A DNA stretch of 64,000 nt from a virus (IMGVR_UViG_3300042445_000748:1-64000); one strand, 5' to 3'. Shown: positions 5,777 to 27,033, counted from the first letter of the stretch. Numbers and translations: made by a program. Notes: a model not told the origin generated them from the letters alone.

Positions 5777-5789
5777 AAATTACACCTGT

Positions 5790-9649: not shown

Positions 9650-10306
9650 CTATTTTATTCGTGTTATGGAAAATGCAGTTTTTTTACAAGGTTTTAATGC
9701 TGCTGTAATTGCATCTTTTTCTTTTTTATCAACAGACAGTGACCATCTAACCTTAACTGAAATCCAGTTAGTTAAATATTCACAGGTGTATGGTTTATTT
9801 GTTGGTAACCATTCTGCTGGATCTCTATCTGATTTTGATCTATTAGATGAACCTGTTACTGCAATTAAATGACGAGGATCTAATTGATCGTTTGCATACA
9901 TCTCACGTTTTTTTGCATCCCATGCACTAGCACCAGAATCCCAGGCTTCTGCTAATGGAACCATATGATCTACATCAAGTTTCTTTGCGTCAGTAACTTT
10001 TGCACTATCATAAATGCTAAGCCACTCTCCACCAACTATATTACATTTTGAATCAACATTTGGCTTTTTAATTGCTTCAGAAATAATAACAGATTTGCGA
10101 GCATCGCAACCATTTCCAGTTCCAACCCAATGCTTAAATTGTTCTCTTTTGTATCCTGTACGAACCTCATCGGCAACCTTTAATGCATTTAATGCTGATA
10201 AAGCATCTTTATATTTATTATCTACAGCATTTGCTGAAATAGTATTTAAAGATAAAACTGTTGCACAAACTGCAACTAATATTTTATTTTGAATTGTGTT
10301 ACCCAT
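9650..10306 (-). CDS. secreted HNH endonuclease (DUF1524 family)
   Basis: signal peptide (ISANA); GYKREQF.HW, LDVDHMVPLAEAWDSGA, NRSKSDRDPAEWLP. Confidence 0.85.
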   Translation of the reverse strand: MGNTIQNKILVAVCATVLSLNTISANAVDNKYKDALSALNALKVADEVRTGYKREQFKHWVGTGNGCDARKSVIISEAIKKPNVDSKCNIVGGEWLSIYDSAKVTDAKKLDVDHMVPLAEAWDSGASAWDAKKREMYANDQLDPRHLIAVTGSSNRSKSDRDPAEWLPTNKPYTCEYLTNWISVKVRWSLSVDKKEKDAITAALKPCKKTAFSITRIK

Positions 10307-10991
10307 ATATATCTCCCATTTTTTCTACAGTAAAACTACTGTTGTTAGTATAAACAATATTTTTAATATTAGGCAACTTAATTATTTTAGCATCTGAAAT
10401 ATTATTTTTAATTAAATTGCTTACTTGTTCAAAATGTAACTTATCATTTTCAGTCATCCCAGAAACATGCTTAATTCCAATAACAACCTGTTTGTTAGTA
10501 GATAAAGCATCTACATACTGTTTAGCATTTTTACCATTCCATGATTGATAAGTGTCAGTCATTAATGTGGTGTCTTCTTTCCAATCAAACAAACCAAATT
10601 TCCTAATAACGTTTATTGCCCTTGTTGGTAAGGCATCTTCGTGTGTATCTCCAGTGTTAACTATTCTATGATCAAAGACTGTTGGATCTTCCCACGCTCT
10701 TGCAGTATTGTTTTCTTTTGTATCTACCCAAACCACTACATCTGCTTTTCCAAATATAGTTCTATATTGCTCTATATTAAATACAGCATCTACTATTACT
10801 GGTTTATCTTGTTTAGATTCTAAAATTCTTGCTAATTCTCCTAGTTTGTGATAGTATGTTAATTCATTAGGCCCTGACAAAAAATTAGTAAAAGTTTCTT
10901 TATCTAAATGTATGCCGTTAATTCTATCTCTTACTGCATCTGCAATCTCAGTTGCACCAGAACCAGGTAGTCCTATAAATTGAATTATCAT
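10299..10991 (-). CDS. degenerate adenylyl-sulfate kinase-like / nucleotidyltransferase-like fusion
   Basis: IIQFIGLPGSGAT (Walker A Lys missing), PVIVD, VVWVDT; C-terminal HxGH-type region eroded. Confidence 0.6.
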   Translation of the reverse strand: MIIQFIGLPGSGATEIADAVRDRINGIHLDKETFTNFLSGPNELTYYHKLGELARILESKQDKPVIVDAVFNIEQYRTIFGKADVVVWVDTKENNTARAWEDPTVFDHRIVNTGDTHEDALPTRAINVIRKFGLFDWKEDTTLMTDTYQSWNGKNAKQYVDALSTNKQVVIGIKHVSGMTENDKLHFEQVSNLIKNNISDAKIIKLPNIKNIVYTNNSSFTVEKMGDIYG

Positions 10992-10992
10992 T

Positions 10993-11445
10993 TTAACTAA
11001 AGTGCCTGTCGTATTGTAAAACAACTTCTGCAACCATACTATCAATAGATCCAATAGATTTAGTAATCATTAGATCATACTCGTCTTCTAGAGGCTCTTC
11101 CCATTTAAAGTCAGAGGGAGCATTTGGTGGTGGAGTTGGAATAATTGCATCCTTTTCATCAATTGTATTTACCCAAACAGTAAATGTTTTTTCCGCATAA
11201 TAAGAATCCTTGAATTGAGTCCTTGCCTCTTTTGTTGGAAAATATCCACTTGGAACATATAGTTGTATGTTATTTTTTGAGGCCACGCTACCAATTGTTC
11301 TTAGCCATCTTGCGTACGGAGACTCAGTGCTTGCAGTTGGCAATTCTCTGTCTGTACAAAAAAAACCATTCATTTTATCTGAAAATTCTTTTGCTACTTT
11401 ATTTCTAATTTCTGGATCTAAGCCAAAAAACTGAACAGTATACAC
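10993..11445 (-). CDS. degenerate APS-kinase-like protein
   Basis: VQFFGL...AKEFSDKMNG, FPTKEAR..F, VWVNT, WEEP pattern without an intact P-loop. Confidence 0.45.
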   Translation of the reverse strand: MYTVQFFGLDPEIRNKVAKEFSDKMNGFFCTDRELPTASTESPYARWLRTIGSVASKNNIQLYVPSGYFPTKEARTQFKDSYYAEKTFTVWVNTIDEKDAIIPTPPPNAPSDFKWEEPLEDEYDLMITKSIGSIDSMVAEVVLQYDRHFS

Positions 11446-12201: not shown

Positions 12202-13146
12202 CTATATTGACAGTGTTTTGTTTATTTGCCAATACTTTTCTATCATATTTATTTCTTTATAGAAATCTACAATTGTTCTTGGCAAACCTAATAAAGTAAA
12301 ATATTTATTTTCACCCAATAACATTAATTTTTTAACTTCTTTTGTCATTTCATCTTCGTCAAATACCCATATTCTTGTCCAATGATCTGGATTATTCCTA
12401 TCTGTACCAACAAATTTCCACCATCTTTCATCGTATGGAAATGAGTACTTGATATCGTTACCAGCATAATGAACTATTGCATTATTGTACGGAGCAACAA
12501 CATCATATCCTTGACAATATACTGCAATAGACTGCTCTGGTTCTTCAAATGGAAATCTATGGTACGAAGGAAAATTTATTGCCTTAATATCTGAAGATTT
12601 TGCAAATATAAAATTACAAGAAATATAATAATTTTTAAAATATTTTTCATTAACTTTATCCTTATTTGGTACAAACTTAAGTTCAACAACTTCTCCGTGT
12701 ATATCTAGTTGATCAAAGGTTCCTTCTAAGATCCAGTCTGTCTTCCAATTATGCTTACCCTGAATAGATGCTGTAGCCTGCCTAGAGATTATTCTCTTCT
12801 CATTATTCTTAGTTAACTCTTCAATGTCATCTATCAAACATTCATCCCAATTAAGTTCAAAATCTGCATGAGCATCAATGCCCAAAAAATAGGATTCGTC
12901 CTCAATTAGACCCCTTATGGCCTCTCTAATGCCCACTATGCCTGGCAGCCCATCTGCAACATCGCTATCTCTAACAATTTTTACGTTATTAAACATAGAT
13001 AAATCTGGCTCTTGTTTATAGTTAAGCCCAAGTCCAAATACAATATTTTCTGGATAGTATGCTGTATCTAATATGTGGTTCATGGTATCTACCAAATGGG
13101 TATCTTCCCATGCTGGAATTGATACAAATATTTTTTTATTTTTCAT
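12202..13146 (-). CDS. glycosyltransferase, GT60/Skp1-hydroxyproline GlcNAc transferase-like
   Basis: IFVSIPAWED, A.YPENI.FG, ESYFLGIDAH.DF..NWD, FEE...GYDVVAP; start moved to MKNKK. Confidence 0.7.
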   Translation of the reverse strand: MKNKKIFVSIPAWEDTHLVDTMNHILDTAYYPENIVFGLGLNYKQEPDLSMFNNVKIVRDSDVADGLPGIVGIREAIRGLIEDESYFLGIDAHADFELNWDECLIDDIEELTKNNEKRIISRQATASIQGKHNWKTDWILEGTFDQLDIHGEVVELKFVPNKDKVNEKYFKNYYISCNFIFAKSSDIKAINFPSYHRFPFEEPEQSIAVYCQGYDVVAPYNNAIVHYAGNDIKYSFPYDERWWKFVGTDRNNPDHWTRIWVFDEDEMTKEVKKLMLLGENKYFTLLGLPRTIVDFYKEINMIEKYWQINKTLSI

Positions 13147-14008
13147 TTTTCTCCTTATATTTTTTATAGAATTGTTCTGCCCAGTATTTATGAAAGACTG
13201 TGCCATGATGTCCATCTCGTTTTTCCATAGCGATAGAGTTTTTATTTAAAGCAATATAATCTTCATAAGCACGTTCCTCAACTATGGAGGTGTCTACAAA
13301 ATTATCTGAATGCAGATTAAAAAGTTCTAAATCATTAATAAACTCATAATTCCATGTGCTCCAAAAAAAATCTGTTTTAGTTTTGCTGAGTAGGCTTTCA
13401 AAAATTTTAATACTTAAATAGTTATGAATTAAAACCGTATTATAATCGGACTCCGTATACTTTCCTAAAGTTGGCTGTTCTGTATTTTGATCAAAAGCCC
13501 CTACTCTGTAAAAACCACTAGACAAATTATAATCATCTGCATGCATATATGCAGATTGCCTTGGTACGTTAGGTAACATAAAAAATATTGCATCTGGTAG
13601 GCCAAACTCTTTTATGTATTCTGATACGACATTTACAATTTCATCTACCCCTCCGCCAGGAATTCCTATTGAAAAAAAACCAGAACATGTATCATCTTTA
13701 TTGATGCTATCATATAACATTTTGCTCCAGCAATCTTCTATAACAGAACCCTCTCCCCAAGTTTCTGAACATCCAGCAAACAATATGTGATTTTTATCAA
13801 CGTGATCTTTTTTAAATTCATCACATCTCCAACCATAACTGTTTGTTTTTAAATAATATTCTATTCTTTCATTAGTTATGTAATGAGATATGGAATCTAT
13901 TCCATCAAAATTTTTCTCTCTATAGTGTGTTAGAGTTGAAAATGGATATTCTTTATTATAGACTTCTGGCCTAACATCCACTGTTTTGTATTTCCATTTA
14001 CGAGACAT
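13136..14008 (-). CDS. SGNH/GDSL-like protein, paralog 1
   Basis: NSYGWRCDEF, ILFAGCSETWG, GIPGGG, C-terminal RDGHHG. Confidence 0.7.
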   Translation of the reverse strand: MSRKWKYKTVDVRPEVYNKEYPFSTLTHYREKNFDGIDSISHYITNERIEYYLKTNSYGWRCDEFKKDHVDKNHILFAGCSETWGEGSVIEDCWSKMLYDSINKDDTCSGFFSIGIPGGGVDEIVNVVSEYIKEFGLPDAIFFMLPNVPRQSAYMHADDYNLSSGFYRVGAFDQNTEQPTLGKYTESDYNTVLIHNYLSIKIFESLLSKTKTDFFWSTWNYEFINDLELFNLHSDNFVDTSIVEERAYEDYIALNKNSIAMEKRDGHHGTVFHKYWAEQFYKKYKEKNEK

Positions 14009-15441
14009 TATACGATTAAGTCCTTTTTATATACATTCTGCCAATTAATTATATCAGTTTCATCATTTAACAATGGTTGGCCTTTAATATTTAAACTAGT
14101 ATTTAATAAAATTGGAACCTTAGATATTTTGTACCATTTAGACAGTAATTCGTATAATCCAGGATGCTGTTCTTTATTTACAGTCTGAACCCTAGAAGTT
14201 CCATCCTTATGAACTACTGAAGGGATAAGGTCTGGCTTTAAACACTTAACGGCATACTGCATATATGGACTTGTAAAACTCATATCAAACCATTTACTTG
14301 CATGTTCTTCCATAACAACAGGAGCAAACGGTCTAAACAACTCTCTTTTTTTTATTTCATTTACCTTATTTTTAATTTCAGGATCTCTTGGATCAGCAAG
14401 TATGCTTCTATTTCCTAGTGCTCTTGGTCCATATTCTGCTCTTCCACTTGCTACCGCCGCAATTCCGTTATTCACTATTTCATTTAATGCTGCATCGACT
14501 GGATAGTTATCTCCTAAATCATATCCAAGAAATGGTGTTTTAAAATCAATGTGCTTTCCGTACAATGCTGCTGCTGCACCCAGAGAACTTCCAGCATCTC
14601 CAGGGTTTGGCATAATCCATATATCATCAAATATATTCCACAACAATGTATTAGCAGAACAATTAAGAGCACACCCACCCATAAAAACTAATTTATTTTT
14701 TTTAGTTAATCTTTTTGCCATATACATAAAATCTATTAACTTTATTTGATAAACTTCTTGTACTGCTGCGGCAATATCAAACCTATCTTGCTCAGTTATT
14801 TCTGATCCCCAATCAAAAATTCCTTTATGAAAATTATATTTTTGATACCCAATTGATGGAAAGTATTCTAAAACCTTTTTAAAATATTTTTGTTTATCTC
14901 CATAGGCAGCCATGCCCATCATTATGTACTCTTCTTGGTTTGGCATTAGCCCAATAAGTTGAGTAAACGCAGAATAAAATAAACCAAAACTAAAGGGATA
15001 ATTATCTTTGTACATTAACTTAATGTTATTTCCTTCTCCAGTCCAAATAGTAGAGGTGTTGAATTCACCAATTGAATCAAGAACAACTATTGCTGCATCA
15101 TCAAACTTGCTAGTATAGTACCCTGCTGCTGCATGCGAGTAGTGATGTTTAAAATTAGTTCTTGGTATTGCATTAAGATAAGTATGTTCAAACCAAGGCT
15201 TACCGCCACCAAAACCACCACGAGTTTTAACTCTTAGTTTCTTTAAAAATGGATTTTCATAGTAGGCTATTTGATCTGGAATCCCATACTCCAATGCATT
15301 ATCTATTAAACCCTTGTTGGTAAACCAATCATTTTTAACTTTGCTATATCTTTCAGCGTGACCAGCAAATAAAACTTTATCGTCTTGTATTAAAGATATA
15401 GATGCATCATGTGTAGTTTCATTAATTCCCATTATTAACAT
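14008..15441 (-). CDS. carbamoyltransferase (NodU/CmcH/TobZ family)
   Basis: HDAS, ERYSKVKND, HHYSHAA, MGMAAYG, GGCALNC, GDAG, EYGPRALGNRS, RPFAP, LLNTSLN. Confidence 0.95.
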   Translation of the reverse strand: MLIMGINETTHDASISLIQDDKVLFAGHAERYSKVKNDWFTNKGLIDNALEYGIPDQIAYYENPFLKKLRVKTRGGFGGGKPWFEHTYLNAIPRTNFKHHYSHAAAGYYTSKFDDAAIVVLDSIGEFNTSTIWTGEGNNIKLMYKDNYPFSFGLFYSAFTQLIGLMPNQEEYIMMGMAAYGDKQKYFKKVLEYFPSIGYQKYNFHKGIFDWGSEITEQDRFDIAAAVQEVYQIKLIDFMYMAKRLTKKNKLVFMGGCALNCSANTLLWNIFDDIWIMPNPGDAGSSLGAAAALYGKHIDFKTPFLGYDLGDNYPVDAALNEIVNNGIAAVASGRAEYGPRALGNRSILADPRDPEIKNKVNEIKKRELFRPFAPVVMEEHASKWFDMSFTSPYMQYAVKCLKPDLIPSVVHKDGTSRVQTVNKEQHPGLYELLSKWYKISKVPILLNTSLNIKGQPLLNDETDIINWQNVYKKDLIV

Positions 15442-16243
15442 TTTCTACCTCCTTAATTCTGTACATTGCTTCTTTAAACCATGCGTAGTGAACTGCTTCG
15501 CTAGGGTGTGTCTTATCTGATCCAAATATTGTCATATCTTTATCATTATTTTGTATAAAGTCAAATGTATTTTTTGCAAATCTTTCTTTATTTATTTGAT
15601 AATAGGTATTAAAAGAATCTTTCATCATTTGATGCATATACTCTTCAAAATCTGGAATATAGATATCTATAAAATCAGTAACTCCTGTAACCAAGTCTGA
15701 CCAACCAGTTGTAAACAACTTTACGTTATTAGTTTTACACATATCTTCTAATATACTATATAAGTTAAATATAAAAATTTCTACCAAGGTTCCATCTAGT
15801 CCACGAAATGTATTAAACTTAAACCAGTCTCTTCCATAATTTGGAAAAAGTATAAATATATAATCTGGATATCCATGTTTAGATATATACTTGAAAACAT
15901 TAAGTATTATTTCTATCGTTGATCCACCAGACAATCCAACATTAAAGTATCCACTGCACGGAGTATGCTCATTTATCTGATCATATAACTTATATGACCA
16001 ACTTTTTTTAATATCATTTAACCCGCATCCAACGGTTATAGAGCATCCAGCAAATAAAATATTTGTTTTATCTTTGCTAACTTCTGTAAAAGAATCGCTA
16101 ATATATGGGACAAACTCAATTGATTGTTTTGTTAAGTCTGGATTAAGAAATGGACCTATGATATCTTTATTTTTGTGCAACAAGTATTTAAAGTGCTGAG
16201 GTCTTTCTTCTCTATCTTGATTAATTATATCTTCAAATTCCAT
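15422..16243 (-). CDS. SGNH/GDSL-like protein, paralog 2
   Basis: ILFAGCSITVG, YFNVGLSGGS, DKTHP. Confidence 0.7.
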   Translation of the reverse strand: MEFEDIINQDREERPQHFKYLLHKNKDIIGPFLNPDLTKQSIEFVPYISDSFTEVSKDKTNILFAGCSITVGCGLNDIKKSWSYKLYDQINEHTPCSGYFNVGLSGGSTIEIILNVFKYISKHGYPDYIFILFPNYGRDWFKFNTFRGLDGTLVEIFIFNLYSILEDMCKTNNVKLFTTGWSDLVTGVTDFIDIYIPDFEEYMHQMMKDSFNTYYQINKERFAKNTFDFIQNNDKDMTIFGSDKTHPSEAVHYAWFKEAMYRIKEVENVNNGN

Positions 16244-16311
16244 ATTAATATATAAACTCTCTCTTTTTAAAATGTTTTTTATTTTTTCTTAACCAAAAAT
16301 AAAATTTAATT

Positions 16312-17259
16312 TTATATATTATTTTTTTCATTTAAATACCTTTCATAGAAATATTTATACCATGCATGATGAAATGCATTTCCGTGATGTTTATTTTTAT
16401 CTGGTGCAATAAATAAGTATGGATCGTTTGAATTATTTGTAGCAAACTCATAAACATCTTGTTGAATTTTGTAAATATCCATCAACTTAAAGGTTGCGGT
16501 GTATCTTTCTAAATATTCAAGTTGTTCAAAAGGATATCTTTCTTTAAAATTACTGTATAGTCCAGTATCTCCAAACTTTCCTTCAGCAGTTAGTTGATGA
16601 TTGTATACGTCAACATTAAAGTACTCCTTGTCGGCACCACGCAGCAAACTATCAACAATATTTTTTTTATCATTTAGAACCCAACTAGTTGACACTAACT
16701 TTGTGCCATTGCTTTTGCACAAAAACTCTAAATGCCTATATAGTTCTGTAATGATGGGAGTTAAAGATTTTTCTGGCTCTTTAAAATAACTGGCGTCTCT
16801 TTCAATTTCTGGTAACAGAATAAATATTATTTTTGGAAATCCATAAGACTGAATATATTTATTTATGTTTATTAATATCTCAAATATACTTCCAGCACAT
16901 AATCCTAGATTGTAGTAACCATCAATATTGACATCTTTTTTAATTGCTTCATAAAGTCTATATGACCAAGTTTTTTTATACTCTACGCCAGCACCAAAAG
17001 TATTTGAACATCCAGCAAAAAGTATGTGATCTCCATCATGATCTTCTGTAAACTCATCTGAACGAAAGTTGTCTGAATTTAAAGTGTAGTCTAAATCATA
17101 TTTTAACCCATCCTCCAACTCTTCATCTAACAATTCTTCAGATAAAAAATTTCTTTTTTTATTTATTATAATGTTAAATTGTTCTTTTGACATTTCTTTT
17201 AATCCATTGCCTATTAAAAAAAGAGAGTTGTTGTGAAAAAAATCATTATTATTGTTCAT
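16312..17259 (-). CDS. SGNH/GDSL-like protein, paralog 3
   Basis: LNSDNFRSDEF, ILFAGCSNTFG, YYNLGLCAGS, DKNKHHG; start moved to MNNNND. Confidence 0.7.
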   Translation of the reverse strand: MNNNNDFFHNNSLFLIGNGLKEMSKEQFNIIINKKRNFLSEELLDEELEDGLKYDLDYTLNSDNFRSDEFTEDHDGDHILFAGCSNTFGAGVEYKKTWSYRLYEAIKKDVNIDGYYNLGLCAGSIFEILININKYIQSYGFPKIIFILLPEIERDASYFKEPEKSLTPIITELYRHLEFLCKSNGTKLVSTSWVLNDKKNIVDSLLRGADKEYFNVDVYNHQLTAEGKFGDTGLYSNFKERYPFEQLEYLERYTATFKLMDIYKIQQDVYEFATNNSNDPYLFIAPDKNKHHGNAFHHAWYKYFYERYLNEKNNI

Positions 17260-18139
17260 CTGTATACCTGCTGTAAAAATATTTATACCAGGCGTAGTGG
17301 AAACCTTCTCCATGATGTTTTCCAGAATCTGGTGCAACAAGTATATTTTTATTATTTACTAATAAAGAATAATTATATATGTTTTCTTTAAAATCTTCTT
17401 GATATAAAACTTTAAAAGTTGATGAATATTTTTGTAAAGTTGCTAACTCATAATATGGATTTATTTCTTTTAGAAAATCATATACTCCACCTTCTGCGTA
17501 TTTGTTATCTCTAGTCTTATAATCTACATAAGAACTATATTCTTTAGTGTAATATTTTGCCATTTCTTCTTCATCCATATTAAGCCAACTTGTACTGAAT
17601 AGTGATGTGTTTGATTTTTTACATAAGTACTCAAACTCATTATACAGTTCAGCAATTATAGTTGTTAATGATATCTCTGGCTTTACAAAATATCTAATAT
17701 CTCTTTCTATTTCTGGAAACAGTAAAAATATAACATCTGGCATGGAATATCTTCTTATATATCTCTGAACATTTACTAATGTTTCAAAGATGCTTGCTCC
17801 TGAAGCACCCAGATTAAAATAACCACTTAACTTTTCTTCTTTTTTTATTTCTTCGTATAGTCTATATGCCCAGGTTTTTTCATATTCAACTCCTTCTCCA
17901 AAAGTATTTGAACATCCAGCAAAAAGTATGTGCTTGTCTTTATGTTTTTTAATAAACTCATCTGATCTAAAATTATCACTATTTAAGTTATATGAAATAC
18001 CAGTTTTTTTAACGTCATCTTTCATTTTGCTGCTTAATGGGTTTACCAAGAAACCTTTATTTCCCTTTATATTAAAGTTTTTATTTGCATTTGTAGGCTC
18101 ATCATCTGAAGATTCAACTTTATACAACTTTTCTTTCAT
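17249..18139 (-). CDS. SGNH/GDSL-like protein, paralog 4
   Basis: LNSDNFRSDEF, ILFAGCSNTFG, YFNLGASGAS, DSGKHHG. Confidence 0.7.
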   Translation of the reverse strand: MKEKLYKVESSDDEPTNANKNFNIKGNKGFLVNPLSSKMKDDVKKTGISYNLNSDNFRSDEFIKKHKDKHILFAGCSNTFGEGVEYEKTWAYRLYEEIKKEEKLSGYFNLGASGASIFETLVNVQRYIRRYSMPDVIFLLFPEIERDIRYFVKPEISLTTIIAELYNEFEYLCKKSNTSLFSTSWLNMDEEEMAKYYTKEYSSYVDYKTRDNKYAEGGVYDFLKEINPYYELATLQKYSSTFKVLYQEDFKENIYNYSLLVNNKNILVAPDSGKHHGEGFHYAWYKYFYSRYTDEQ

Positions 18140-18810
18140 TCTTGACCTGTAGAATTTCTAATCATGTCAGATGGTACATTATGAAACCAAGTAGGTACTG
18201 CATACCTCGGTCCCTTTAAAACAGAGTCAACTTCGTGAACATATAAAAAGTTAGATGGAAAGAATACAATACTACCTGCCGATGGTTTAATGGTTACATT
18301 TGATTGCTTAAATGTTATTTCTCCACCAACATAGTCATCATTAAGGTATAGCAGTACAGACAAAACCCTTGTACTAACTCCTTGGTCTTGATGTGGTGGC
18401 AAATATCCAGTCTTATCATATCTTAATAAACTAGTTGCGTGTTCTTTTGCTTTAACATTTTTTTGTGCAAATGGATATAGTTTGGTTGAATAATGTTTTA
18501 ATGCTTCATCAATTGATCCATGTATTCTAGAAGATATATTTCTTTGTTCATCTCTAAAGGTATCATCTTCTGATATCTGTTCCATAGTTGGAATAAATTT
18601 TTGCCAACAAAATATTTCTTTGGTTCCAGCACTTTCATTAACCCAAGGAGACCATGGTTGAACAACTGTTTTTTGTTTAACATCTTCAGGACTATTCAAT
18701 AGTCTTTCTTCTAAATCTTCTATATTTCTTATAATCTGATCAGTATTTTTTACAATATTTTTATAATATACTAATCCTAAATCTAGTACCTCATGATCTA
18801 TTAGATTCAC
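18136..18810 (-). CDS. 2OG-Fe(II) oxygenase (P4H-like)
   Basis: HQD...YLNDDYVGGEITF...HEVDSVLKGPRY. Confidence 0.9.
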   Translation of the reverse strand: MNLIDHEVLDLGLVYYKNIVKNTDQIIRNIEDLEERLLNSPEDVKQKTVVQPWSPWVNESAGTKEIFCWQKFIPTMEQISEDDTFRDEQRNISSRIHGSIDEALKHYSTKLYPFAQKNVKAKEHATSLLRYDKTGYLPPHQDQGVSTRVLSVLLYLNDDYVGGEITFKQSNVTIKPSAGSIVFFPSNFLYVHEVDSVLKGPRYAVPTWFHNVPSDMIRNSTGQE

Positions 18811-19417
18811 GCTCTTCTGCCTCTCGCTCTAATGGATACTCAACGGCTTGCCAAACTGGTTTTTTATTTTCTCCTAAAAAGTCTGGATCTGCATGTTCTG
18901 GAAGAGATGTGTGCATAAACAAAGCAGTATATCTATGCCCTTCAGTTACCTCTGTAATACCATGAATGTATTCAGTACCAGCACTTGGAAAAAATACTGC
19001 TGAATATTTCTTAGGTTGATAAACAAAGTCTTGATTAGGAAAAAATATCTTACCACCTTGATACTCTGGAGTTTCATTTAGGTAAATGATTGTGCTAAAC
19101 TCTATGAATGGTTCAGGACCTTGTGCATCTAGGTGCAACCCACCCCTTGTGCCCTTTACCCAGTGTGATCCAAAACCTTTAAACACATATATGGGATTAA
19201 GAAAACCATTATAGGATCTATGAACTTCGTTTGATTTATTTCCATATTTAATCATTACGTCCATAACGTTTTTGTTATACGGTAAAGATGTTCCACCATA
19301 TCTTTTTCCATAATATTCTGGATATGGATTAACCTCTGATGGGTTGTGCTGTTCCCTTATTAGGGTATCTGCGTCTTCTTTGGTTATAAAATTGTCTATT
19401 ACCGAAATTCTATGCAT
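18791..19417 (-). CDS. 2OG-Fe(II) oxygenase (P4H-like)
   Basis: HLD...YLNE..YQGGKIFF...HGITEVTEGHRY. Confidence 0.9.
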   Translation of the reverse strand: MHRISVIDNFITKEDADTLIREQHNPSEVNPYPEYYGKRYGGTSLPYNKNVMDVMIKYGNKSNEVHRSYNGFLNPIYVFKGFGSHWVKGTRGGLHLDAQGPEPFIEFSTIIYLNETPEYQGGKIFFPNQDFVYQPKKYSAVFFPSAGTEYIHGITEVTEGHRYTALFMHTSLPEHADPDFLGENKKPVWQAVEYPLEREAEERESNRS

Positions 19418-19446
19418 AGTTTTCCTATCTTTCTTATATTATACCA

Positions 19447-20331
19447 CTAGTCAATGTAGTTAATTTTAGTCATAAACTTTTTAGAATCAACATCGTCAAA
19501 TTTGGACAGGTCCTGATCATACTCAACATCGTTCATTGGAAAAGGTAGTGGATGGATAGACTCTGGGTCAATCTTATGTAGTTTTAAAAACATGCTTACG
19601 TCTGGCATCATTGGTTGATCTATTGAATCATACTTATTTTTTTTATTTTTAAGTAGGTCAATCATCTCATTATAGTTATGATATTTTGAAAATGTAGTAT
19701 ATAGATCTTTTATCGTGTCTGACCCTTCCTTTGTATAAAAGTTGTCTGGACAACTATACATTTTGATATTATTAGAAAAATATAATAATGACAAAGTTTC
19801 TTCCTCTCCATAATATTTCATGTATGATGGATAGTTTACAGATTGTAGCGTTGACGTGTGGGCAAAAATTAAATCTCTACTAGTAAAATATACTTGTTCT
19901 ATTTTTTCTGTTTTTATTTCTTCTTTTTTTAAATAAAAAATTCCATCATTTGATAAGATAGTTTTATTCTTACCAGTTATTATTGATTGCTTGTTTGGTA
20001 AACTGCTTAATAAAAATTCATCCCAATCTTGATTTAGAAAAACATTATCTGATAATAATAGTGTATATGAAAATTTTGAATCATTAATAATTTTTTGTCT
20101 ATAATAGCAGGGACTTTTTATTTTATCCCAAAATATATGATTATATGTTAGACTATCAAATTGATCAAAATATTCTTGTTTAGTTAGGGTGCTTTGATCA
20201 TAAATATGCACATATATCATATTTTTTTTAGATGATTTTTGCAATAAATTATCTACAACTTTTTTTAATAACTTGCCTTTATATGAATATATGATTACAT
20301 TAATTGGATTAGGCAAATTTTCATTCGTCAT
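19447..20331 (-). CDS. divergent GT-A glycosyltransferase (GT60-like)
   Basis: INVIIYSYK, CYYRQ, LSDNVFLNQDWD, YYGEEETLSL. Confidence 0.55.
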   Translation of the reverse strand: MTNENLPNPINVIIYSYKGKLLKKVVDNLLQKSSKKNMIYVHIYDQSTLTKQEYFDQFDSLTYNHIFWDKIKSPCYYRQKIINDSKFSYTLLLSDNVFLNQDWDEFLLSSLPNKQSIITGKNKTILSNDGIFYLKKEEIKTEKIEQVYFTSRDLIFAHTSTLQSVNYPSYMKYYGEEETLSLLYFSNNIKMYSCPDNFYTKEGSDTIKDLYTTFSKYHNYNEMIDLLKNKKNKYDSIDQPMMPDVSMFLKLHKIDPESIHPLPFPMNDVEYDQDLSKFDDVDSKKFMTKINYID

Positions 20332-21082
20332 CGTATTCCTTTATTCCCTTTGTTCCAAATATTTTTTTTATCCATGCTGTTTTTTTATAATATCCATATA
20401 GCATGGACCTTCTATTCTCTGCTTTAAATTCATGTTCGTCAAACTTTTCTAAACTTGTGTCAACTTTCATCTCCCAGTTATCTCTTTTAAATGGAATTAT
20501 TTGAAACACAGGCGTTCCCCTTTTTATTACTCCTTGAAATCCTCTTTTAAGAAAAAATGCAGTAAAAACTGGTAGTCCCCAAATGTCTGACTCTACTATT
20601 CCAGACATAGTTATGAATGGTAAGTCGTGTCTGTTCATTGGGTGTGTTATTAAAACTGAATAACCTGGTGGTGTTTCGTAATACCAATTCATTCTCCATC
20701 CATAATGTATTGGGTGGCAGTTATCTGGTACAGGGAGATCTATTGTTGGTCTTTTATCCATAATCATTATGTCTTTATCCCAAGACAATTTTGGTTTTCC
20801 ATTTTTATCTAACTCAACTAAAAGATCATCTTCTAATAAATAATAATACCCTGCAGTTAAAGAGTCAAAAAAGGGCATACACATCTTAGTAGCAACTCTT
20901 GCACCGTCTCCACCTATATTATTAACTGGATTTAGATGTTTATCATCATTCCAAATTTCATGCTTTGCTAAACTTTTATACCATTCAGGAACATGTTTAA
21001 CTGCAGGTTCTGGTGGAATAAAAATACCTTCGTAATTTGGACCACCACCTGGAATAAATGATATATTTAAAGGATCACTCAT
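20321..21082 (-). CDS. conserved phage protein, dUTPase-fold-like, paralog 2
   Basis: PEWYK, KMCMPFFDSLTAGY, TPPGYS, GIVESD, IKRGTPVFQIIP. Confidence 0.55.
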   Translation of the reverse strand: MSDPLNISFIPGGGPNYEGIFIPPEPAVKHVPEWYKSLAKHEIWNDDKHLNPVNNIGGDGARVATKMCMPFFDSLTAGYYYLLEDDLLVELDKNGKPKLSWDKDIMIMDKRPTIDLPVPDNCHPIHYGWRMNWYYETPPGYSVLITHPMNRHDLPFITMSGIVESDIWGLPVFTAFFLKRGFQGVIKRGTPVFQIIPFKRDNWEMKVDTSLEKFDEHEFKAENRRSMLYGYYKKTAWIKKIFGTKGIKEYDDE

Positions 21083-21810
21083 TACTTATATTCTTTTTTT
21101 TGTCTAAACTTTTCTTTATAAGAATTTCTAAAACTACTTCTAACTAACAACCTTTGTTTTTCTATTTCATCTTTACCATCACCATATGCAACACACTCTG
21201 AATCCCAAGACTCTCTCTTAACTGGTATTGCTTGAATAAGTGGCGTACCTTGTTTTATAATACCTTTAAAATCTTTTTTAATATACATAGAAAAGTGTCC
21301 ATCTGATGCAAACTTATCTGTATCTACAAATGCTTCAAATGCTTTAAAAGGAACTTCGTCTCTATGAAATGGATGAGTAAAGATAGTGCTATACCCTTTT
21401 GGTGTCATTATGGACCAAAATGGCAAGATTCTAAAAATTTGTTTATGGTATAGATTGGTATCTACAGGATAGTTAGAGATTTGCTCTGCAGTGTGAGTTG
21501 CGACCATGTCATTTCCAACAAACCTAAGTTCATTTGGAACGCTCCACTCTATTTTTTCTGGATTAGTAGCGTCTACATATACATCCATAGGAAACTTAAT
21601 AATGTATCCAGCAGTCATTAGATCAAATACTGGCATACATCTTTTTACTGTTCCACTACTCCCACCCTTGGCAATAAAATCTTTATATTCATCACCTATA
21701 AAACCTGGTTGTTGCTTATACCATTCTGGAATAAATTTTGATGCTGCTTCTGGGACAGGTGCAAACATTGCTGTTTTTTCGCTAAAAGGATAAAATTTAA
21801 TCCTGTTCAT
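21082..21810 (-). CDS. conserved phage protein, dUTPase-fold-like, paralog 3
   Basis: PEWYK, KRCMPVFDLMTAGY, TPKGYS, FVDTD, IKQGTPLIQAIP. Confidence 0.55.
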   Translation of the reverse strand: MNRIKFYPFSEKTAMFAPVPEAASKFIPEWYKQQPGFIGDEYKDFIAKGGSSGTVKRCMPVFDLMTAGYIIKFPMDVYVDATNPEKIEWSVPNELRFVGNDMVATHTAEQISNYPVDTNLYHKQIFRILPFWSIMTPKGYSTIFTHPFHRDEVPFKAFEAFVDTDKFASDGHFSMYIKKDFKGIIKQGTPLIQAIPVKRESWDSECVAYGDGKDEIEKQRLLVRSSFRNSYKEKFRQKKEYK

Positions 21811-22477
21811 ATAACTTCCTTACTCTCTCTACTATTATATCACTCGCTACGAACCTTATGTTATACATAGGGCTAAACCTTGGTATCTTGCCAAACTCGT
21901 GATCAACCATATGACTACCTGCGTTTTTAAAATGAAAATAAACGAAGTCAGTCTCAATCATCCTAGTAGTTTCAGGTATTTTTTTAAAATTCATTATACC
22001 TGGATATACAACAAAAGGAGAATTTTCTGGCTGTTCTATAAATGCTTCAACTTCCTCGTCAATAAGCCATGGCATATAAAATCTAAAAACATCAGCAAAA
22101 CAATCTTTAGGCAACTCAGGGGGCTCTTGATCTGATAAGTAGTATTGTCTAATCCATGGCCTATCTAAACTATACAAACCATCTTCCTTTTGAAGTAAAA
22201 ATATTTCAGCATGATTAGTTTGTTGCAATGTAATCTCATTATTTTTTATACTGATTAAATTAGGTTTTTGATATAGTTTTTTTGCATACAAGTTTATTGG
22301 TTTAATTATGCTGTCTTTATATTCATCTTTTATTCCTTCTTGATAAGAAAGCCATCTATGTGATACCCTAGACCTTTCATTAATATATAAAAAAGACTCT
22401 GATTTTGATTTATACCAAATATCAAAATCTAGACTTAGTGGAGTAATTGTTTCGTTACTCACTCTTCTTCTGACCAA
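21797..22477 (-). CDS. hypothetical protein
   Basis: ORF in operon; start uncertain. Confidence 0.55.
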   Translation of the reverse strand: MVRRRVSNETITPLSLDFDIWYKSKSESFLYINERSRVSHRWLSYQEGIKDEYKDSIIKPINLYAKKLYQKPNLISIKNNEITLQQTNHAEIFLLQKEDGLYSLDRPWIRQYYLSDQEPPELPKDCFADVFRFYMPWLIDEEVEAFIEQPENSPFVVYPGIMNFKKIPETTRMIETDFVYFHFKNAGSHMVDHEFGKIPRFSPMYNIRFVASDIIVERVRKLYEQD

Positions 22478-22941
22478 TCTTTATTTAATAATTCTTTTGG
22501 TATAACTTTGTAACCACTTCTATCAATACCAATCTCGTATCCTTTTTCAGCCTCTATCCATCCTAATAAATTAACTGTTCTATATTCAGAATCTGATAGT
22601 TCTGCACCCCAAATAATTAAACCACGATTAAGATCCTTTTCACGTACCGCTGGACCAGATTGTGTTCTTACTCTTCTTACTTCTATGTTTGTTCCTACGT
22701 CTGGCATATCTTTATACTTCTTATGCTTTCTACCGTCCCAAACTGAGGCATGCCAATACTGGTTTGTATATTTGGCAACTGCTAATTCACAAATTGCTGA
22801 TGCTGGCTGAGCGTTTCTATCTTCTTCCATACTAGATCTATTGTAGTATGAAGCATCTACCTTATTCCAATTTTCTGTATATCTTCGCATACCAACCATA
22901 TAGGCATGTTCATATTCCCACGGTTCTAATTCAATTATCAA
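22459..22941 (-). CDS. hypothetical protein, possible PD-(D/E)xK nuclease fold
   Basis: ICELAVAKY...PDVG..IEVR spacing. Confidence 0.45.
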   Translation of the reverse strand: MIIELEPWEYEHAYMVGMRRYTENWNKVDASYYNRSSMEEDRNAQPASAICELAVAKYTNQYWHASVWDGRKHKKYKDMPDVGTNIEVRRVRTQSGPAVREKDLNRGLIIWGAELSDSEYRTVNLLGWIEAEKGYEIGIDRSGYKVIPKELLNKDWSEEE

Positions 22942-22968
22942 TTGCTTTCCTATTCTGTTAATGTTGCG

Positions 22969-23040
22969 AGCCTCGACTCAGGTTTGAACTGAGGACCTTC
23001 CGCTTACAAGGCGGATGCACTACCACTGTGCTATCGAGGC
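22969..23040 (-). tRNA. tRNA-Thr(UGU)
   Basis: GCCTCGA/TCGAGGC acceptor stem; anticodon arm TCCGC-CTTGTAA-GCGGA; GTTCAAA T-loop. Confidence 0.92.
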
Positions 23041-23041
23041 G

Positions 23042-23115
23042 TGGGAATAGTAGGACTTGAACCTACGATAGCCGAATTATGAGTTCGGTGCCTTAACCTA
23101 CTTGGCTATATTCCC
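23042..23115 (-). tRNA. tRNA with CAU anticodon (elongator Met or Ile2)
   Basis: GGGAATA/TATTCCC acceptor stem; CCGAA-CTCATAA-TTCGG; GTTCAAG. Confidence 0.9.
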
Positions 23116-23117
23116 TT

Positions 23118-23193
23118 TGGCTGGCGTGGTAGGTCTCGATCCTACGACTTCGAAATTAACAGTTTCGCACTCTGCCAACTGAGTTACACGCCA
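23118..23193 (-). tRNA. tRNA-Asn(GUU), CCA encoded
   Basis: TGGCGTG/CACGCCA-G-CCA; CGAAA-CTGTTAA-TTTCG; atypical T-loop ATCGAGA. Confidence 0.88.
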
Positions 23194-23199: not shown

Positions 23200-24102
23200 T
23201 TATTCTGAAACTAACACTAACTTGTCAGTAACAGTTAAACCTTTTTGCCATTGTGTTGCAACAGCAACATTTGCAGAAGAGGTTGTTTGAGGAATTAAAC
23301 CAAACAGCACTGAGCCATAATTAAACTTACCTGTTGGCAATACTCCAAAATAATCTGTATTAGCATCATGATTTCCTACTGGAAATGTAGAAACAGAAAC
23401 TGTATCAGTAATACATGCTGGATATGCTACTGGTTTTCTGTTTGAATCATTACCTGTAGAAACAAATACTGGAATGCCTTTATTTTTTAAACTGGCAACT
23501 GTTGATCTAATTGCTGGATCAACAATTTTAACATTAACTAATCCAGTTGGAGAAAGTTTACAATCTCCTGGCTTTGTCATATTTCCACTTAGTCCATAAG
23601 AAAATGACACAGCAGATACATTTGATGAATTAGTATCTACCCATTTTAATGCTGCAAGAAAATCATTTCCATTTAAAATTCCAACTGCACCTTTGTTTGA
23701 TACTGTTGCAGATCTAACTAATATAAGTGGAACATTTGGATTATTTCTACGAGCAACCTCAACCATAGCCATACCATGATTTACTGGATCAGAAACTCTC
23801 TTAGAAGGTTTCGGTGTATTTACACACTTATCTGTTGCAATACAAACAATAGTTGTGTTAGCAACTCTTGTATCAAAGTAACTATCAATAATTACAATTG
23901 GTTTAGTATTAACTGCTGGTGTTGGAGTTGGTGTAACAACTGGTGTTGGTGTAACAACTGGTGTTGGAACAACAACTGGTGTTGGACTCTCAACTATAGG
24001 TGTTGGAGTTGATGTAACAACTGGTGTTGGACTCTCAACTGCATTTGCTGGAACTGCTAGTACTGAAAATAAAACAGATAAAACAATAAACATTTTTTTC
24101 AT
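23200..24102 (-). CDS. secreted S8 subtilisin-like protease with Pro/Thr-rich linker
   Basis: signal peptide (PANA); IVIIDS (Asp), NHG.AM (His), STGND (oxyanion Asn), YPAC, TTSSA (Ser). Confidence 0.8.
   Translation of the reverse strand: MKKMFIVLSVLFSVLAVPANAVESPTPVVTSTPTPIVESPTPVVVPTPVVTPTPVVTPTPTPAVNTKPIVIIDSYFDTRVANTTIVCIATDKCVNTPKPSKRVSDPVNHGMAMVEVARRNNPNVPLILVRSATVSNKGAVGILNGNDFLAALKWVDTNSSNVSAVSFSYGLSGNMTKPGDCKLSPTGLVNVKIVDPAIRSTVASLKNKGIPVFVSTGNDSNRKPVAYPACITDTVSVSTFPVGNHDANTDYFGVLPTGKFNYGSVLFGLIPQTTSSANVAVATQWQKGLTVTDKLVLVSE
23915..24040 (-). repeat. in-frame tandem repeats encoding (V/T)PTPVV
   Basis: recurring ACAACTGGTGTTGG units on the plus strand. Confidence 0.75.
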
Positions 24103-24293: not shown

Positions 24294-24815
24294 CTAGATG
24301 CTTACCGTGTCAATAGGACCAGTGCAAGATGTTGAAAAATTAATAGCAGCACCTACTGCTTGAATGACTCTGTTTCTTCCATTTTTTTGTTTTTGCGTAG
24401 AGTACATTGATCCAAGTGCAAATTCTGATGCTGAACCCATTGCTAAATAATCTAAGTCATATTCTGTTAATGACATATCTACAGCACTGTGTTCAAACAT
24501 TCTACCTTTAACACAAATGATCATTCCAAAGTCTGAGTCTTTAGAAACATCAACCCACCATCTATCATAAAAATCTCTTAAAGATATTAAAAATTTTGTA
24601 TACATAAACTTATCTAGGTTACCTTCTGGAGCAGGTGGTTTAAAGTTTAACCTTATTCTTTCACCATCCATGGTGCCAGCATATCCTATTAGATATTGAC
24701 CAGTCTTCCAAACTTTGGGTGCTTTTAAAGTAAGCATGCTGTTTTCATCTGATGCACCTCTGTCACCAGCCATATAAATCTTATTTTCTTGTCTAACTAC
24801 TGCAATGCAGGTCAA
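24294..24815 (-). CDS. Ntn-hydrolase, HslV/proteasome beta-subunit-like protease
   Basis: N-terminal (M)TCIA, MAGD, PKV, AMGSASEFALG. Confidence 0.8.
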   Translation of the reverse strand: MTCIAVVRQENKIYMAGDRGASDENSMLTLKAPKVWKTGQYLIGYAGTMDGERIRLNFKPPAPEGNLDKFMYTKFLISLRDFYDRWWVDVSKDSDFGMIICVKGRMFEHSAVDMSLTEYDLDYLAMGSASEFALGSMYSTQKQKNGRNRVIQAVGAAINFSTSCTGPIDTVSI

Positions 24816-25163: not shown

Positions 25164-25648
25164 TATTCTTCTCCTTCCCTTATTCGCATAGTTATTAACC
25201 ATACAAACAAAACAGTTATAATTGCATACCCTACAATAGTTTTTGCACTACCCTCGAGTACTAGCCATGCTGCGAACATACCTAGTAATGTCCACAATTG
25301 GTTTAATGTTTCTACAAATGCTTCTACTAGCCATGCCCATACAAATTTAACTACTGTCCATACTTTATTTAATATCCACACAATTAATTTCCAGATACTA
25401 ACAAATACCCATTTAATTGCATTCCAGATACTTGTAATAATCCAAGTAATAACTTGAGTACCTTCATTAATTACCCCAATTATTACTTTATATATACCTT
25501 TAAGTATCTTCCAAACAAGATTAAGAACATATTTAATTACCGCCATAACCTTGATTAGAATAAACTTAACTAGGTTTATGGGTAACATAACTACGAACTT
25601 AACTGCTTTGAAGATAAACTTAAAAGGTTTTAATATTGCCTTTATCAT
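25163..25648 (-). CDS. membrane protein with amphipathic Trp-rich repeats
   Basis: about 11-residue K/W amphipathic repeats, then two TM helices. Confidence 0.65.
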   Translation of the reverse strand: MIKAILKPFKFIFKAVKFVVMLPINLVKFILIKVMAVIKYVLNLVWKILKGIYKVIIGVINEGTQVITWIITSIWNAIKWVFVSIWKLIVWILNKVWTVVKFVWAWLVEAFVETLNQLWTLLGMFAAWLVLEGSAKTIVGYAIITVLFVWLITMRIREGEE

Positions 25649-27033
25649 GTTATCCTCCTTATTTCTGCTCTTGCATTCATCTGTACTATGCTTGAAGACA
25701 TTGCTACAGATCCTATTAATTGACCCACAATAACTGTTGCAACAACAACTGATTGTGAGTCCTCTCTTTCTTCTTCTGTCATATCAGCACCCAATTGTCC
25801 AAGTGCTTCTAACACTTGTCCTGGATCTGATACAAACTCTCCTAATAAGGCCCCAGGATCTGACAGTTGTTCAAATACAACTGCAACACCTGCTTCTAAT
25901 TCAACACCTTCACGGTATTCAATTATTTGATTTTCATCTAATTGTTCTAAAAATTCTAAAGTTTGCTCATCATTTAATCCTTCAATTAAATCTGCTACTG
26001 GCATTGCTTCATCTACTTCATAGTTTTCAATTAATAATTCTGCAATGTTTTCTAATTGTTCATCTGTAATTTCTTCTTCATTAACTAACATTTCTTCAAT
26101 TGCATTATCCATTTCTTCCTCTACTGGTATAATTTCTTCTGAAGGAGTTGGTTCAAGTGAAGGTTCGATTACAGGTTCTGGTTGTGGCTCTTCTATCACT
26201 ATTGGTTCTGGTTCCTCTATCACTACTGGCTCTGGTTCGAATGTTGGCTGAGGGTTTGGGTCTGGTTGAACTGGATCAGGAGTTGGACTTGGAGTTGGAT
26301 CAGGACTAGGTGTTTCTGTAGGCGTAGGAGTAGGGCTAGGGCTTTCTGTAGGTGTTTCTGTAGGTGTTGGTGTTGGGGTAGGAGTAGGAGTAGGAGTTGC
26401 TATAGGGGTTGGTGTAGGACTTGGAGCAGGTGGCTCTGTAATAGTTTGAACACTTAATGGAAAAACTTCACCATTCTGAACGTATCTTGCCCCATATCTT
26501 GCACCTCCTGGTGCGTTAGAACTTACTTGATAAGTTGGAGTCCAAGTATAATTAATTGGATTTACTTCTGCTAACATTCTAATATAAACAGGGTCTCCTG
26601 ATGATTGACCCCACACCATAACTTTCCAGTCAACACATATAGATGTTGCAGTTGAGCCATACCTTACGTATAAATCTTTTCCTACACCCCAACCTGGATC
26701 CCATTGAGCACCTGGAGTATTAGCAAAGGCGTGGTAATCCCATGAGCCAATTGATATAGATGGACTTGGTGGGAAAGTCCAAAATGTGTAATCTCCTACG
26801 CCAAAAGTAATTGTTCCCTTTGGACTTACATAAATGTTATTTGTATAAACAGTTTCTCCCCACTTAAGAGGAGTATTTAAATTCATCAAGAAGGCTTGGT
26901 CTCCACCGTTTACCTGATAGGTATCACATGGTGCTGCATTTGCCTGAGCCTGTTGTGGCGTGCAAGAAAGAAATAGTATTGATGCTACTATAAAGACAAA
27001 GAATGCTCTGCGAAGAGTCCTAAAGTTATTAAT
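25645..27033 (-). CDS. secreted/membrane-anchored protein with PT/PE-rich linker; likely ATT start
   Basis: frame open 48 codons upstream of the track start, encoding a signal peptide (..RTLRRAFFVFIVASILFLSCTPQQAQA); C-terminal hydrophobic segment. Confidence 0.7.
   Translation of the reverse strand: MNNFRTLRRAFFVFIVASILFLSCTPQQAQANAAPCDTYQVNGGDQAFLMNLNTPLKWGETVYTNNIYVSPKGTITFGVGDYTFWTFPPSPSISIGSWDYHAFANTPGAQWDPGWGVGKDLYVRYGSTATSICVDWKVMVWGQSSGDPVYIRMLAEVNPINYTWTPTYQVSSNAPGGARYGARYVQNGEVFPLSVQTITEPPAPSPTPTPIATPTPTPTPTPTPTETPTESPSPTPTPTETPSPDPTPSPTPDPVQPDPNPQPTFEPEPVVIEEPEPIVIEEPQPEPVIEPSLEPTPSEEIIPVEEEMDNAIEEMLVNEEEITDEQLENIAELLIENYEVDEAMPVADLIEGLNDEQTLEFLEQLDENQIIEYREGVELEAGVAVVFEQLSDPGALLGEFVSDPGQVLEALGQLGADMTEEEREDSQSVVVATVIVGQLIGSVAMSSSIVQMNARAEIRRIT
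26160..26435 (-). repeat. low-complexity Pro-Thr / Pro-Glu coding repeat
   Basis: PTPTPTPTPTETPTESPSPTP...EPEPVVIEEPEP. Confidence 0.75.

Follow-up and report, generated by a model that had tools for sequence, protein, structure and literature searches.

The stretch of DNA considered here (the window) is the first 64,000 nucleotides (64 kb) of a 91.5-kb viral contig from IMG/VR, IMGVR_UViG_3300042445_000748 (G000), which is estimated to be 76% complete. The contig encodes a terminase, a DNA polymerase, a DnaB-like helicase and tail genes; the window has about 32% G+C and carries nearly every gene on the minus strand. Positions 12202-22477 hold twelve minus-strand open reading frames (ORFs) arranged back to back, whose neighbours overlap or stand at most 68 nt apart. 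A first-pass annotation had described twelve co-oriented, mostly overlapping genes in this interval, and our ORF listing agrees. The families and folds that it had named were all verified by profiles, paralogy and structural models: a GT60-type glycosyltransferase, four SGNH proteins, a carbamoyltransferase, two 2-oxoglutarate (2OG) oxygenases, a second glycosyltransferase and two proteins with a dUTPase fold. The shared orientation of the array is not special in itself, because almost all genes of the window lie on the minus strand. Our main finding is that this island is not one fixed pathway but a composite, whose soluble, cytoplasmic tailoring enzymes fall into three modules that can be separated.

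The core gene of the island (14008-15441) encodes an O-carbamoyltransferase of the NodU/CmcH/TobZ type. Both of its domains exceed their curated cut-offs: the Kae1-like N-terminal domain PF02543 scores 115.8 bits against a cut-off of 24 (E 4e-33), and the YrdC-like C-terminal domain PF16861 scores 176.4 bits against 27 (E 5e-52). Its matches in the PDB are NovN (3.5e-51), GdmN and TobZ, with E values from 1e-36 to 1e-51, and both the metal-site motif H-x-x-x-H and the motif G-P-R-A-L-G-N-R-S align identically to NovN. The carbamoyltransferase was found in every relative that we examined.

Four SGNH-fold paralogs surround the carbamoyltransferase gene. The first (17249-18139) carries the motif F-A-G-C-S-N-T-F-G, and its AlphaFold2 model, with a mean predicted local distance difference test score (pLDDT) of 86, has an SGNH fold. 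The second (16312-17340) is 48% identical to the first; as its orthologs are 326-327 residues long, the listed TTG probably lies upstream of its true start. The third (15422-16243) matches the first by BLASTP at E 5e-36 and has a weak match to the GDSL family PF00657 (E 0.003), and the fourth (13136-14008) matches the first at E 1e-27. All four proteins match one another by BLAST and have the F-A-G-C-S-N-T-F-G motif and an invariant histidine in common. Among 35 sequences of the family, Ser77 of block I (within G-C-S) and His275 of block V are invariant; no invariant asparagine was identified for block III, and an aspartate stands 3-4 residues before the histidine in most members, but not in all. 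Searches of the PDB with sequences and profiles returned nothing for this family. The top Foldseek and VIA matches of the 17249 model were all SGNH enzymes (Z 16.2-10). The best match of an exhaustive VIA search was CgnD, the crocagin peptidase (Z 16.2 over 224 aligned residues, with the second match at Z 13.4), and the alignment with CgnD takes in an unusual 70-residue N-terminal extension of the SGNH model.

Six further genes form what we call the cassette. The first of them (21797-22477) encodes an orphan protein, U217, which had no match in Pfam, PHROG, NCBIfam or the PDB and for which the ESM Atlas returned nothing usable. Its family is narrow, with 74 representative clusters among 1.84 billion proteins, and it always accompanies the cassette. 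U217 is without the G-x-V-D-T-D motif of its neighbours, but hhalign relates it to their dUTPase-fold family with colinear motifs (a moderate link, probability 62%, E 7e-5). Judged from this alignment, U217 is probably a degenerate dUTPase-fold paralog.

The next two genes encode the clear dUTPase-fold proteins. Protein A (21082-21810) matches phrog_7084 at E 7e-47, and its AlphaFold2 model (pLDDT 84) matches dUTPases in Foldseek at E 4.5e-4. Protein B (20321-21082) is 30% identical to A (BLASTP E 3e-27) and matches phrog_7084 at E 2e-31. With VIA, the top 22 matches of the 21082 model (Z 10.5-5.9) all belong to the dUTPase/dCTP deaminase superfamily and include two herpesvirus dUTPase-related proteins, after which Z drops to 4.9. 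The G-x-V-D-T-D of 21082 aligns with motif 3 of Escherichia coli Dut (GLIDSD), and its G-T-P-x-x-Q aligns with motif 4, with the glutamine kept. The position of the motif-4 arginine reads Thr-Pro, and the motif-2 arginine is replaced, the latter as judged by eye only; the phosphate-binding arginines therefore appear from the alignment to have been lost from these paralogs. The phage proteins thus resemble the dUTPase/dCTP deaminase superfamily in their fold, in the motif-3-like sequence and in the motif-4 glutamine, but unlike trimeric dUTPases and dCTP deaminases they have about 100 additional residues, stand side by side as two or three divergent paralogs and do not match PF00692. The canonical dUTPase family PF00692 had no match in any genome that we searched, and we found no longer, fused forms of the dUTPase-fold protein. 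In Pfam, 20321 shows a sub-threshold similarity to DUF6065 (E 5e-4) and 21082 is unmatched. We found no paper that mentions DUF6065, the ESM Atlas holds only uncharacterised viral clusters for the dUTPase-fold protein, and the one chromosomal bacterial DUF6065 gene, in a Roseobacter, follows an ABC importer, a context that is uninformative.

The cassette ends with a glycosyltransferase-like gene and two oxygenase genes. GTb (19447-20331) is a divergent GT-A protein that is homologous to the family of the GT60-type enzyme described below (hhalign 98%, E 2e-13); it remains below the PF11397 threshold (E 0.057; 13.3 bits against 21), and the D-x-H columns are not conserved in its family. The oxygenases are Fe(II)-dependent 2OG enzymes of the prolyl 4-hydroxylase (P4H) type: B (18791-19417) scores 33.7 bits with PF13640 against a cut-off of 27 and has the residues H-L-D...H...R, and A (18136-18810) scores 61.6 bits (E 1.4e-16) and has H-Q-D...H...R. 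The best PDB matches of A are a PKHD-type hydroxylase and the Bacillus anthracis prolyl 4-hydroxylase. Four more P4H-like genes lie outside the array at 2811-5444; three of them exceed the PF13640 cut-off and one, at 3389-4078, falls below it (24.2 bits). At 2811-6797 these four genes adjoin a third clear dUTPase-fold paralog (6075-6797, minus strand; BLASTP E 1e-35, phrog_7084 E 2e-32), so that the pairing of oxygenase and dUTPase-fold genes is repeated within the window.

The last gene of the array (12202-13215) encodes a GT60-type GT-A glycosyltransferase, which scores 55.3 bits with PF11397 against a cut-off of 21 (E 1e-14) and also matches the glycosyltransferase family phrog_24687. Asp114 and His116 of its D-x-H motif are invariant in the family, and the enzyme looks catalytically intact. 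Searches of the PDB with sequences and profiles gave nothing for the GT60-like, GTb or U217 families. None of the twelve array proteins has a signal peptide or a membrane segment, unlike the products of the neighbouring genes at 9650 and 23200.

To place the array among its relatives, we used 80 viral loci around relatives of the carbamoyltransferase, out of 570 viral loci that carry one, and 80 around relatives of the dUTPase-fold proteins, 160 in all. The ORFs of these loci were clustered into gene families, and five complete or near-complete genomes were searched as well. Carbamoyltransferase loci were grouped at 95% carbamoyltransferase identity, which gave 23 lineages. In 20 of these an SGNH paralog directly adjoins the carbamoyltransferase gene, and both genes occur in all five genomes. 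This first module consists of the carbamoyltransferase and one to four adjacent SGNH genes. The carbamoyltransferase and SGNH genes occur with or without the oxygenases and glycosyltransferases; therefore, the hydroxyl that accepts the carbamoyl group cannot depend on those oxygenases. Adjacency was absent from 21 loci of a group at 72% carbamoyltransferase identity (for instance L054 11440-11898), where the carbamoyltransferase gene is followed by a gene for a protein with a TipAS antibiotic-recognition domain, a P4H-like oxygenase gene and a weak, sub-threshold luciferase-like match.

The second module is the cassette, in the order 21797, two dUTPase-fold genes, 19447 and two 2OG oxygenase genes. 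This order is kept down to 25-40% identity, and the complete cassette was present in nine of the 23 lineages and in three of the five genomes. In one of these genomes (G004) it lies about 45 kb away from the carbamoyltransferase gene. The 12202-type gene is sporadic (5/23 lineages), and it is at times duplicated, located elsewhere in the genome or found next to a GFO/IDH/MocA oxidoreductase gene. The latter, family F30, takes the slot of SGNH gene 13136 in the close relatives L005, L009, L013 and L014. The sugar enzymes of relatives' islands vary more generally, and include GFO/IDH/MocA oxidoreductases and two GT61 genes.

All twelve genes also occur in the same order in a second lineage (L018, L033) whose carbamoyltransferase is only 77% identical to that of the window. 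As the full order recurs at this distance, the array is not a chance collection. The first-pass annotation had proposed a single pathway that creates hydroxyls, glycosylates them and caps them, and had looked to co-occurrence in related phages as its test. The enzyme identities stand, and so does non-random co-occurrence, in that the carbamoyltransferase-SGNH pair and the cassette both recur; the whole array is not an obligate unit, though, and three separable modules, a cassette that can be unlinked and a sporadic GT60-like gene do not fit the idea of one pathway.

The cassette has a second home. Many relatives carry the dUTPase-fold gene, or the cassette as a whole, directly behind a fibre-associated gene and ahead of a ribonucleotide reductase gene. 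The fibre-associated gene encodes an FN3 domain, six VFGFSPF-type repeats, each with a Ser-Pro, and a Hint domain, and we refer to its product as the FN3-repeat-Hint protein. Within this slot the cassette is interleaved with genes for 215-residue oxygenase-like proteins that bear the motif HDH...FHGYYC...GHPH. In its minimal form the slot holds the repeat gene, a dUTPase-fold gene and the reductase gene. G000 itself has the slot without the cassette at 76592-81095, outside the window (equivalent to L180 4593-9096): here we found an Mtd_N fibre gene, the FN3-repeat-Hint gene (77927-79171), two HDH...GHPH paralogs, a class II ribonucleotide reductase gene and a P4H-like gene. The insertion of the cassette in relatives falls exactly at the equivalent of 76.6-81 kb in G000. 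The only cultured viruses in which we found the phrog_7084 dUTPase-fold family are haloarchaeal tailed viruses, where the gene lies between the tail genes and the ribonucleotide reductase gene (for example in Halorubrum virus Serpecor1, L084 5896-6726). This context cuts both ways, as it offers a candidate protein substrate but also points to nucleotide metabolism.

Two known systems with protein or peptide substrates resemble the island in part. The first is the hydroxyproline glycosylation of Skp1, which in Dictyostelium and Toxoplasma is carried out by the prolyl 4-hydroxylase PhyA and the GT60 enzyme Gnt1. We take the combination of PF13640 and PF11397 to be the enzyme pair of this cytoplasmic hydroxyproline-N-acetylglucosamine pathway. 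The island likewise pairs a cytoplasmic P4H-type oxygenase of PF13640 with a GT60-type GT-A enzyme that has D-x-H, and by analogy its oxygenases might be specific for proline; PF13640 also includes enzymes of unassigned substrate. Unlike the Skp1 pathway, the island is without Skp1, GT2, GT77 and GT8, the glycosyltransferase of its cassette is without D-x-H, and the dUTPase-fold, SGNH and carbamoyltransferase proteins are additional.

The second is the crocagin cluster of Chondromyces crocatus (CgnA-E, CgnI and CgnL), which comprises a 2OG dioxygenase, two paralogous binding proteins, the SGNH peptidase CgnD and an O-carbamoyltransferase; in related clusters a glycosyltransferase takes the place of the carbamoyltransferase (PMC10070186). 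The island resembles this cluster in combining a CgnD-like SGNH protein, a 2OG dioxygenase and an adjacent carbamoyltransferase with paired paralogous proteins. It differs in that it has four or five SGNH copies, no CgnA-like precursor that we could find and no methyltransferase in the array. CgnB and CgnE are themselves aminopeptidase-like, not dUTPase-fold, proteins (PMC10070186).

Based on these comparisons, we have proposed a model in which the island tailors, in the cytoplasm and ahead of assembly, a protein or peptide made by the phage. We rank this model first, although with a probability of only about 40% it is tentative, and its chemical steps are all inferred from gene anatomy and co-occurrence. 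The best candidate substrate would be the FN3-repeat-Hint protein. We propose that the 2OG oxygenases hydroxylate its side chains, as the prolyl 4-hydroxylase does in the Skp1 pathway, and that the GT60-type enzymes may add a sugar to these new hydroxyls or to existing ones. The carbamoyltransferase would cap a hydroxyl at the expense of carbamoyl phosphate and ATP, whereas the SGNH proteins may trim or de-esterify the substrate. More speculatively, the dUTPase-fold paralogs might present the substrate to the oxygenases, in the way that CgnB and CgnE serve CgnC. This model draws on the pairing of PF13640 with PF11397, the lack of signal and membrane segments, the position of the cassette behind the FN3-repeat-Hint gene, the Ser-Pro repeats, the CgnD match and the crocagin-like enzyme set. 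Virion proteins had been among the targets suggested at first pass, and the cassette beside a fibre-associated gene in relatives lends that suggestion some contextual support. Direct action on the outer host envelope, which had also been suggested, is disfavoured because all 12 proteins are without signal peptides and membrane segments.

Several observations weigh against tailoring of a phage protein or peptide. The FN3-repeat-Hint gene is not discriminating, because it is present in every genome that we checked, and the site that separates it from the reductase gene may simply be an insertion hot spot. The SGNH proteins resemble CgnD in structure only, their sequences being 14% identical, and a profile did not recover CgnD from the PDB sequences. 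Additionally, the role given to the dUTPase-fold proteins would be no more than an analogy; a nucleotide ligand is what their fold and the motif-3 aspartates that they keep suggest. In the minimal slot the dUTPase-fold gene adjoins the ribonucleotide reductase gene, a pairing also seen in haloarchaeal viruses. The nearest characterised relatives of the carbamoyltransferase act on small molecules. Among the island proteins and the small conserved ORFs we recognised neither a CgnB/CgnE-like protein nor an obvious short precursor, although the Cgn sequences were not compared directly. A more specific version of the model is a crocagin-like system in which a hetero-oligomer of two or three diverged dUTPase-fold proteins, repurposed from the binding of nucleotides, would present the Phe-Ser-Pro repeats to the paired oxygenases, the GT60-type enzymes and the carbamoyltransferase would decorate the hydroxyls so created, and the CgnD-like SGNH paralogs and the Hint domain would cut the product, to yield a decorated fibre tip or released modified peptides. 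We regard this version as a long shot.

Two kinds of candidate substrate were rejected. The small conserved ORFs near the carbamoyltransferase gene (F4, 9301 and 24102) look globular, which does not suit a precursor peptide. The Pro/Thr-rich proteins encoded at 23200 and 25645 were set aside as preferred substrates because, among relatives, their presence does not follow that of the cassette. The product of the gene at 23200-24102 (minus strand; phrog_3677) is a secreted protein with a signal peptide, a Pro/Thr linker of the (T/S)P(T)PVV type and a C-terminal part that resembles a protease; relatives carry the gene whether or not they have the cassette. The product of the gene at 25645-26889 (minus strand), just after the terminase gene, has a long linker rich in Pro, Thr and Glu, an acidic stretch and a C-terminus that is hydrophobic, and it has no family match.

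The nucleotide ligand suggested by the dUTPase fold leads to the reading that we rank second, which we consider unlikely. Here the dUTPase-fold proteins would handle pyrimidine deoxynucleotides, a 2OG enzyme would hydroxylate a base in the manner of JBP or T7H, a GT-A enzyme would glycosylate it and the carbamoyltransferase would cap a hydroxymethyl group, so that the phage DNA would be protected from restriction. The motif-3 sequence G-x-V-D-T-D and the motif-4 glutamine are kept, relatives and haloarchaeal viruses have the dUTPase-fold genes beside that for ribonucleotide reductase, no canonical dUTPase was found in these genomes and two kinase-like paralogs lie nearby (10299-11445). Furthermore, a phage carbamoyltransferase is documented to act on 5-hydroxymethylcytosine (5hmC) in DNA, RNA and deoxynucleoside triphosphates; it co-occurs with genes for a thymidylate-synthase-like dCMP hydroxymethylase, a MazG-like protein and a deaminase, whereas on contigs without the modification the carbamoyltransferases have glycosyltransferases as neighbours (Yang et al., 2021; PMC8670742). 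The island enzyme is similarly phage-encoded, has Carbam_trans_N and Carbam_trans_C, belongs to the same superfamily and would use carbamoyl phosphate and ATP; unlike in the 5hmC system, the hydroxymethylase, MazG-like and deaminase partners were not found in G000 or in the complete relatives. The thymidylate synthase family PF00303 was absent from G000, which is 76% complete and in which PF02511 was not searched, and both PF00303 and PF02511 were absent from five relatives that are 90-100% complete. Nor do the oxygenases approach the Tet_JBP family (PF12851), whose cut-off is 34.9 bits: the best scores are 14.9 bits in G000, reached by oxygenase A (18136), and 22 bits in relatives. A route to modified DNA by way of 5hmC, as had been raised at first pass, is unlikely because there is no match of the ThyA/ThyX type and because the Tet_JBP scores are far below the cut-off. 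In the synthesis of base J, the 2OG thymidine hydroxylase JBP acts first and is followed by the glucosyltransferase JGT. The island would share with this pathway the use of a 2OG oxygenase and then of a GT-A enzyme on the new hydroxyl, but its oxygenases are not of the TET/JBP type. Base oxidation by a different 2OG enzyme may still take place. Other points also speak against a DNA target: characterised members of PF13640 and PF11397 act on proteins, the dUTPase-fold proteins appear to be without the phosphate-binding arginines of motifs 2 and 4, and the four or five SGNH paralogs and the GT61 and GFO/IDH/MocA neighbours would be left unexplained.

In another reading the target would be a cytoplasmic glycan precursor or a small molecule, such as a nucleotide-sugar, a lipid-linked envelope precursor or a metabolite, with remodelling of the cell surface (for instance in superinfection exclusion) or the making or inactivation of a compound as the outcome. 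NovN, GdmN, TobZ and NodU, the nearest characterised carbamoyltransferases, act on sugars or small molecules, many carbohydrate esterases are found among the remaining structural matches of the SGNH model, and the islands of relatives vary in GFO/IDH/MocA, two GT61, TipAS and a weak, sub-threshold luciferase-like match. The uridine-binding dUTPase-like fold could in principle bind UDP-sugars. We rank this reading third and think it doubtful: we saw no envelope-pathway gene in the island, be it for a flippase, an acyltransferase-3, a polymerase or another function, not one of the twelve enzymes is predicted to be exported, the substrates known for the P4H-type and GT60-type families are proteins, and in relatives the cassette is tied to a fibre-associated gene. 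The remaining explanation is that the genes share no target, and that a hyperplastic region downstream of the terminase gene gathers unrelated accessory genes and their duplicates. Cyanomyoviruses would be the model, as their hyperplastic regions hold several 2OG-Fe(II) oxygenases and sporadic carbamoyltransferases without assigned roles (PMC3037559). Like these viruses, the present one is an aquatic phage with many P4H-like copies and a NodU-like carbamoyltransferase, and cyanophage homologs are 29-35% identical to its own; in contrast, the SGNH partners, the cassette and the 21797 family were not found beside the carbamoyltransferase in the cultured phages that we checked. Gene content differs strongly among close relatives and includes unrelated CHAP, SNase, TP_methylase and TipAS neighbours, the carbamoyltransferase and the cassette can be unlinked, and the cultured phages with the best carbamoyltransferase homologs, RsoM2USA and C48C1, have only that gene in common with the island. 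However, the cassette keeps its order to 25-40% identity and moves as a unit, the carbamoyltransferase and SGNH genes adjoin in 20 of 23 lineages, and the order of all 12 genes recurs at 77% carbamoyltransferase identity. This speaks for at least two selected multi-gene units, and we consider a region without any shared target the least probable of the four explanations.

The array does not end at the borders of the twelve genes. Upstream, a minus-strand gene at 22459-22941 (160 residues, phrog_18407), found in close relatives only, overlaps gene 21797 by 19 nt, and downstream, co-oriented genes go on below 12202. Promoter-like and terminator-like sites are no commoner than in shuffled sequence. 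A fifth SGNH-fold paralog lies outside the array, upstream of the terminase gene (29376-30347, minus strand); it matches 16312 by BLASTP at E 4e-38 and also by profile. Just upstream of gene 22459 are three minus-strand tRNA genes at 22968-23193 (Thr-TGT, Met-CAT and Asn-GTT). An HslV-family peptidase-like gene (24294-24815, minus strand; phrog_1040, E 5e-19) is kept just upstream of the island in many relatives. On the other side, a minus-strand gene at 9650-10306, found in close relatives only, codes for a nuclease that has a signal peptide and a domain of the GmrSD_C/HNH type (PF07510, E 1e-13). At 10299-11445, again on the minus strand, lie the two paralogous P-loop kinase-like genes (phrog_10255, 'kinase'), which are conserved near the island in 45 of 81 loci (80 relatives and the window) and could be relevant to a nucleotide-level reading. 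Farther away, five adjacent minus-strand genes at 33442-36757 had no Pfam match at E 0.01.

Phages of this kind are common. A near-identical copy of the 10-kb stretch is present in 20 lake-water metagenome runs, of which six are possible sources of the contig and at least 14 lie beyond these, and hundreds of IMG/VR contigs carry relatives. There was no RNA run among the public runs that contain the stretch, and a megablast search with it against cultured phages gave no match. The metagenome-assembled genomes among the genome matches come from Lake Mendota and other waters, and the metagenome bins that contain relatives disagree with one another as to the host. Relatives that bear terminal repeats are 110-124 kb long.

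Each single enzyme of the island falls into a known superfamily, and cyanophages have already been seen to carry accessory islands with many 2OG oxygenases and carbamoyltransferases. We found no published description of a conserved pair of a carbamoyltransferase and a CgnD-like protein, none of a cassette of dUTPase-fold, GT60-like and P4H-like genes with the orphan 21797 family, and no paper on a phage pairing of P4H with GT60. To our knowledge, the many-copy 2OG oxygenases and the carbamoyltransferases of aquatic phages have been without an explanation since the first cyanophage genomes. Defined, conserved units are now in hand, namely the carbamoyltransferase with its CgnD-like SGNH partner and the cassette, together with a concrete candidate substrate. 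If the crocagin-like system were true, the dUTPase fold would have been put to a new use, and phages would make modified peptides of a new class. Whichever target is the true one, the dUTPase-fold family (PHROG 7084, with its weak similarity to DUF6065) would gain its first function, whether in decorating a fibre, in making a new DNA base or in remodelling a glycan.

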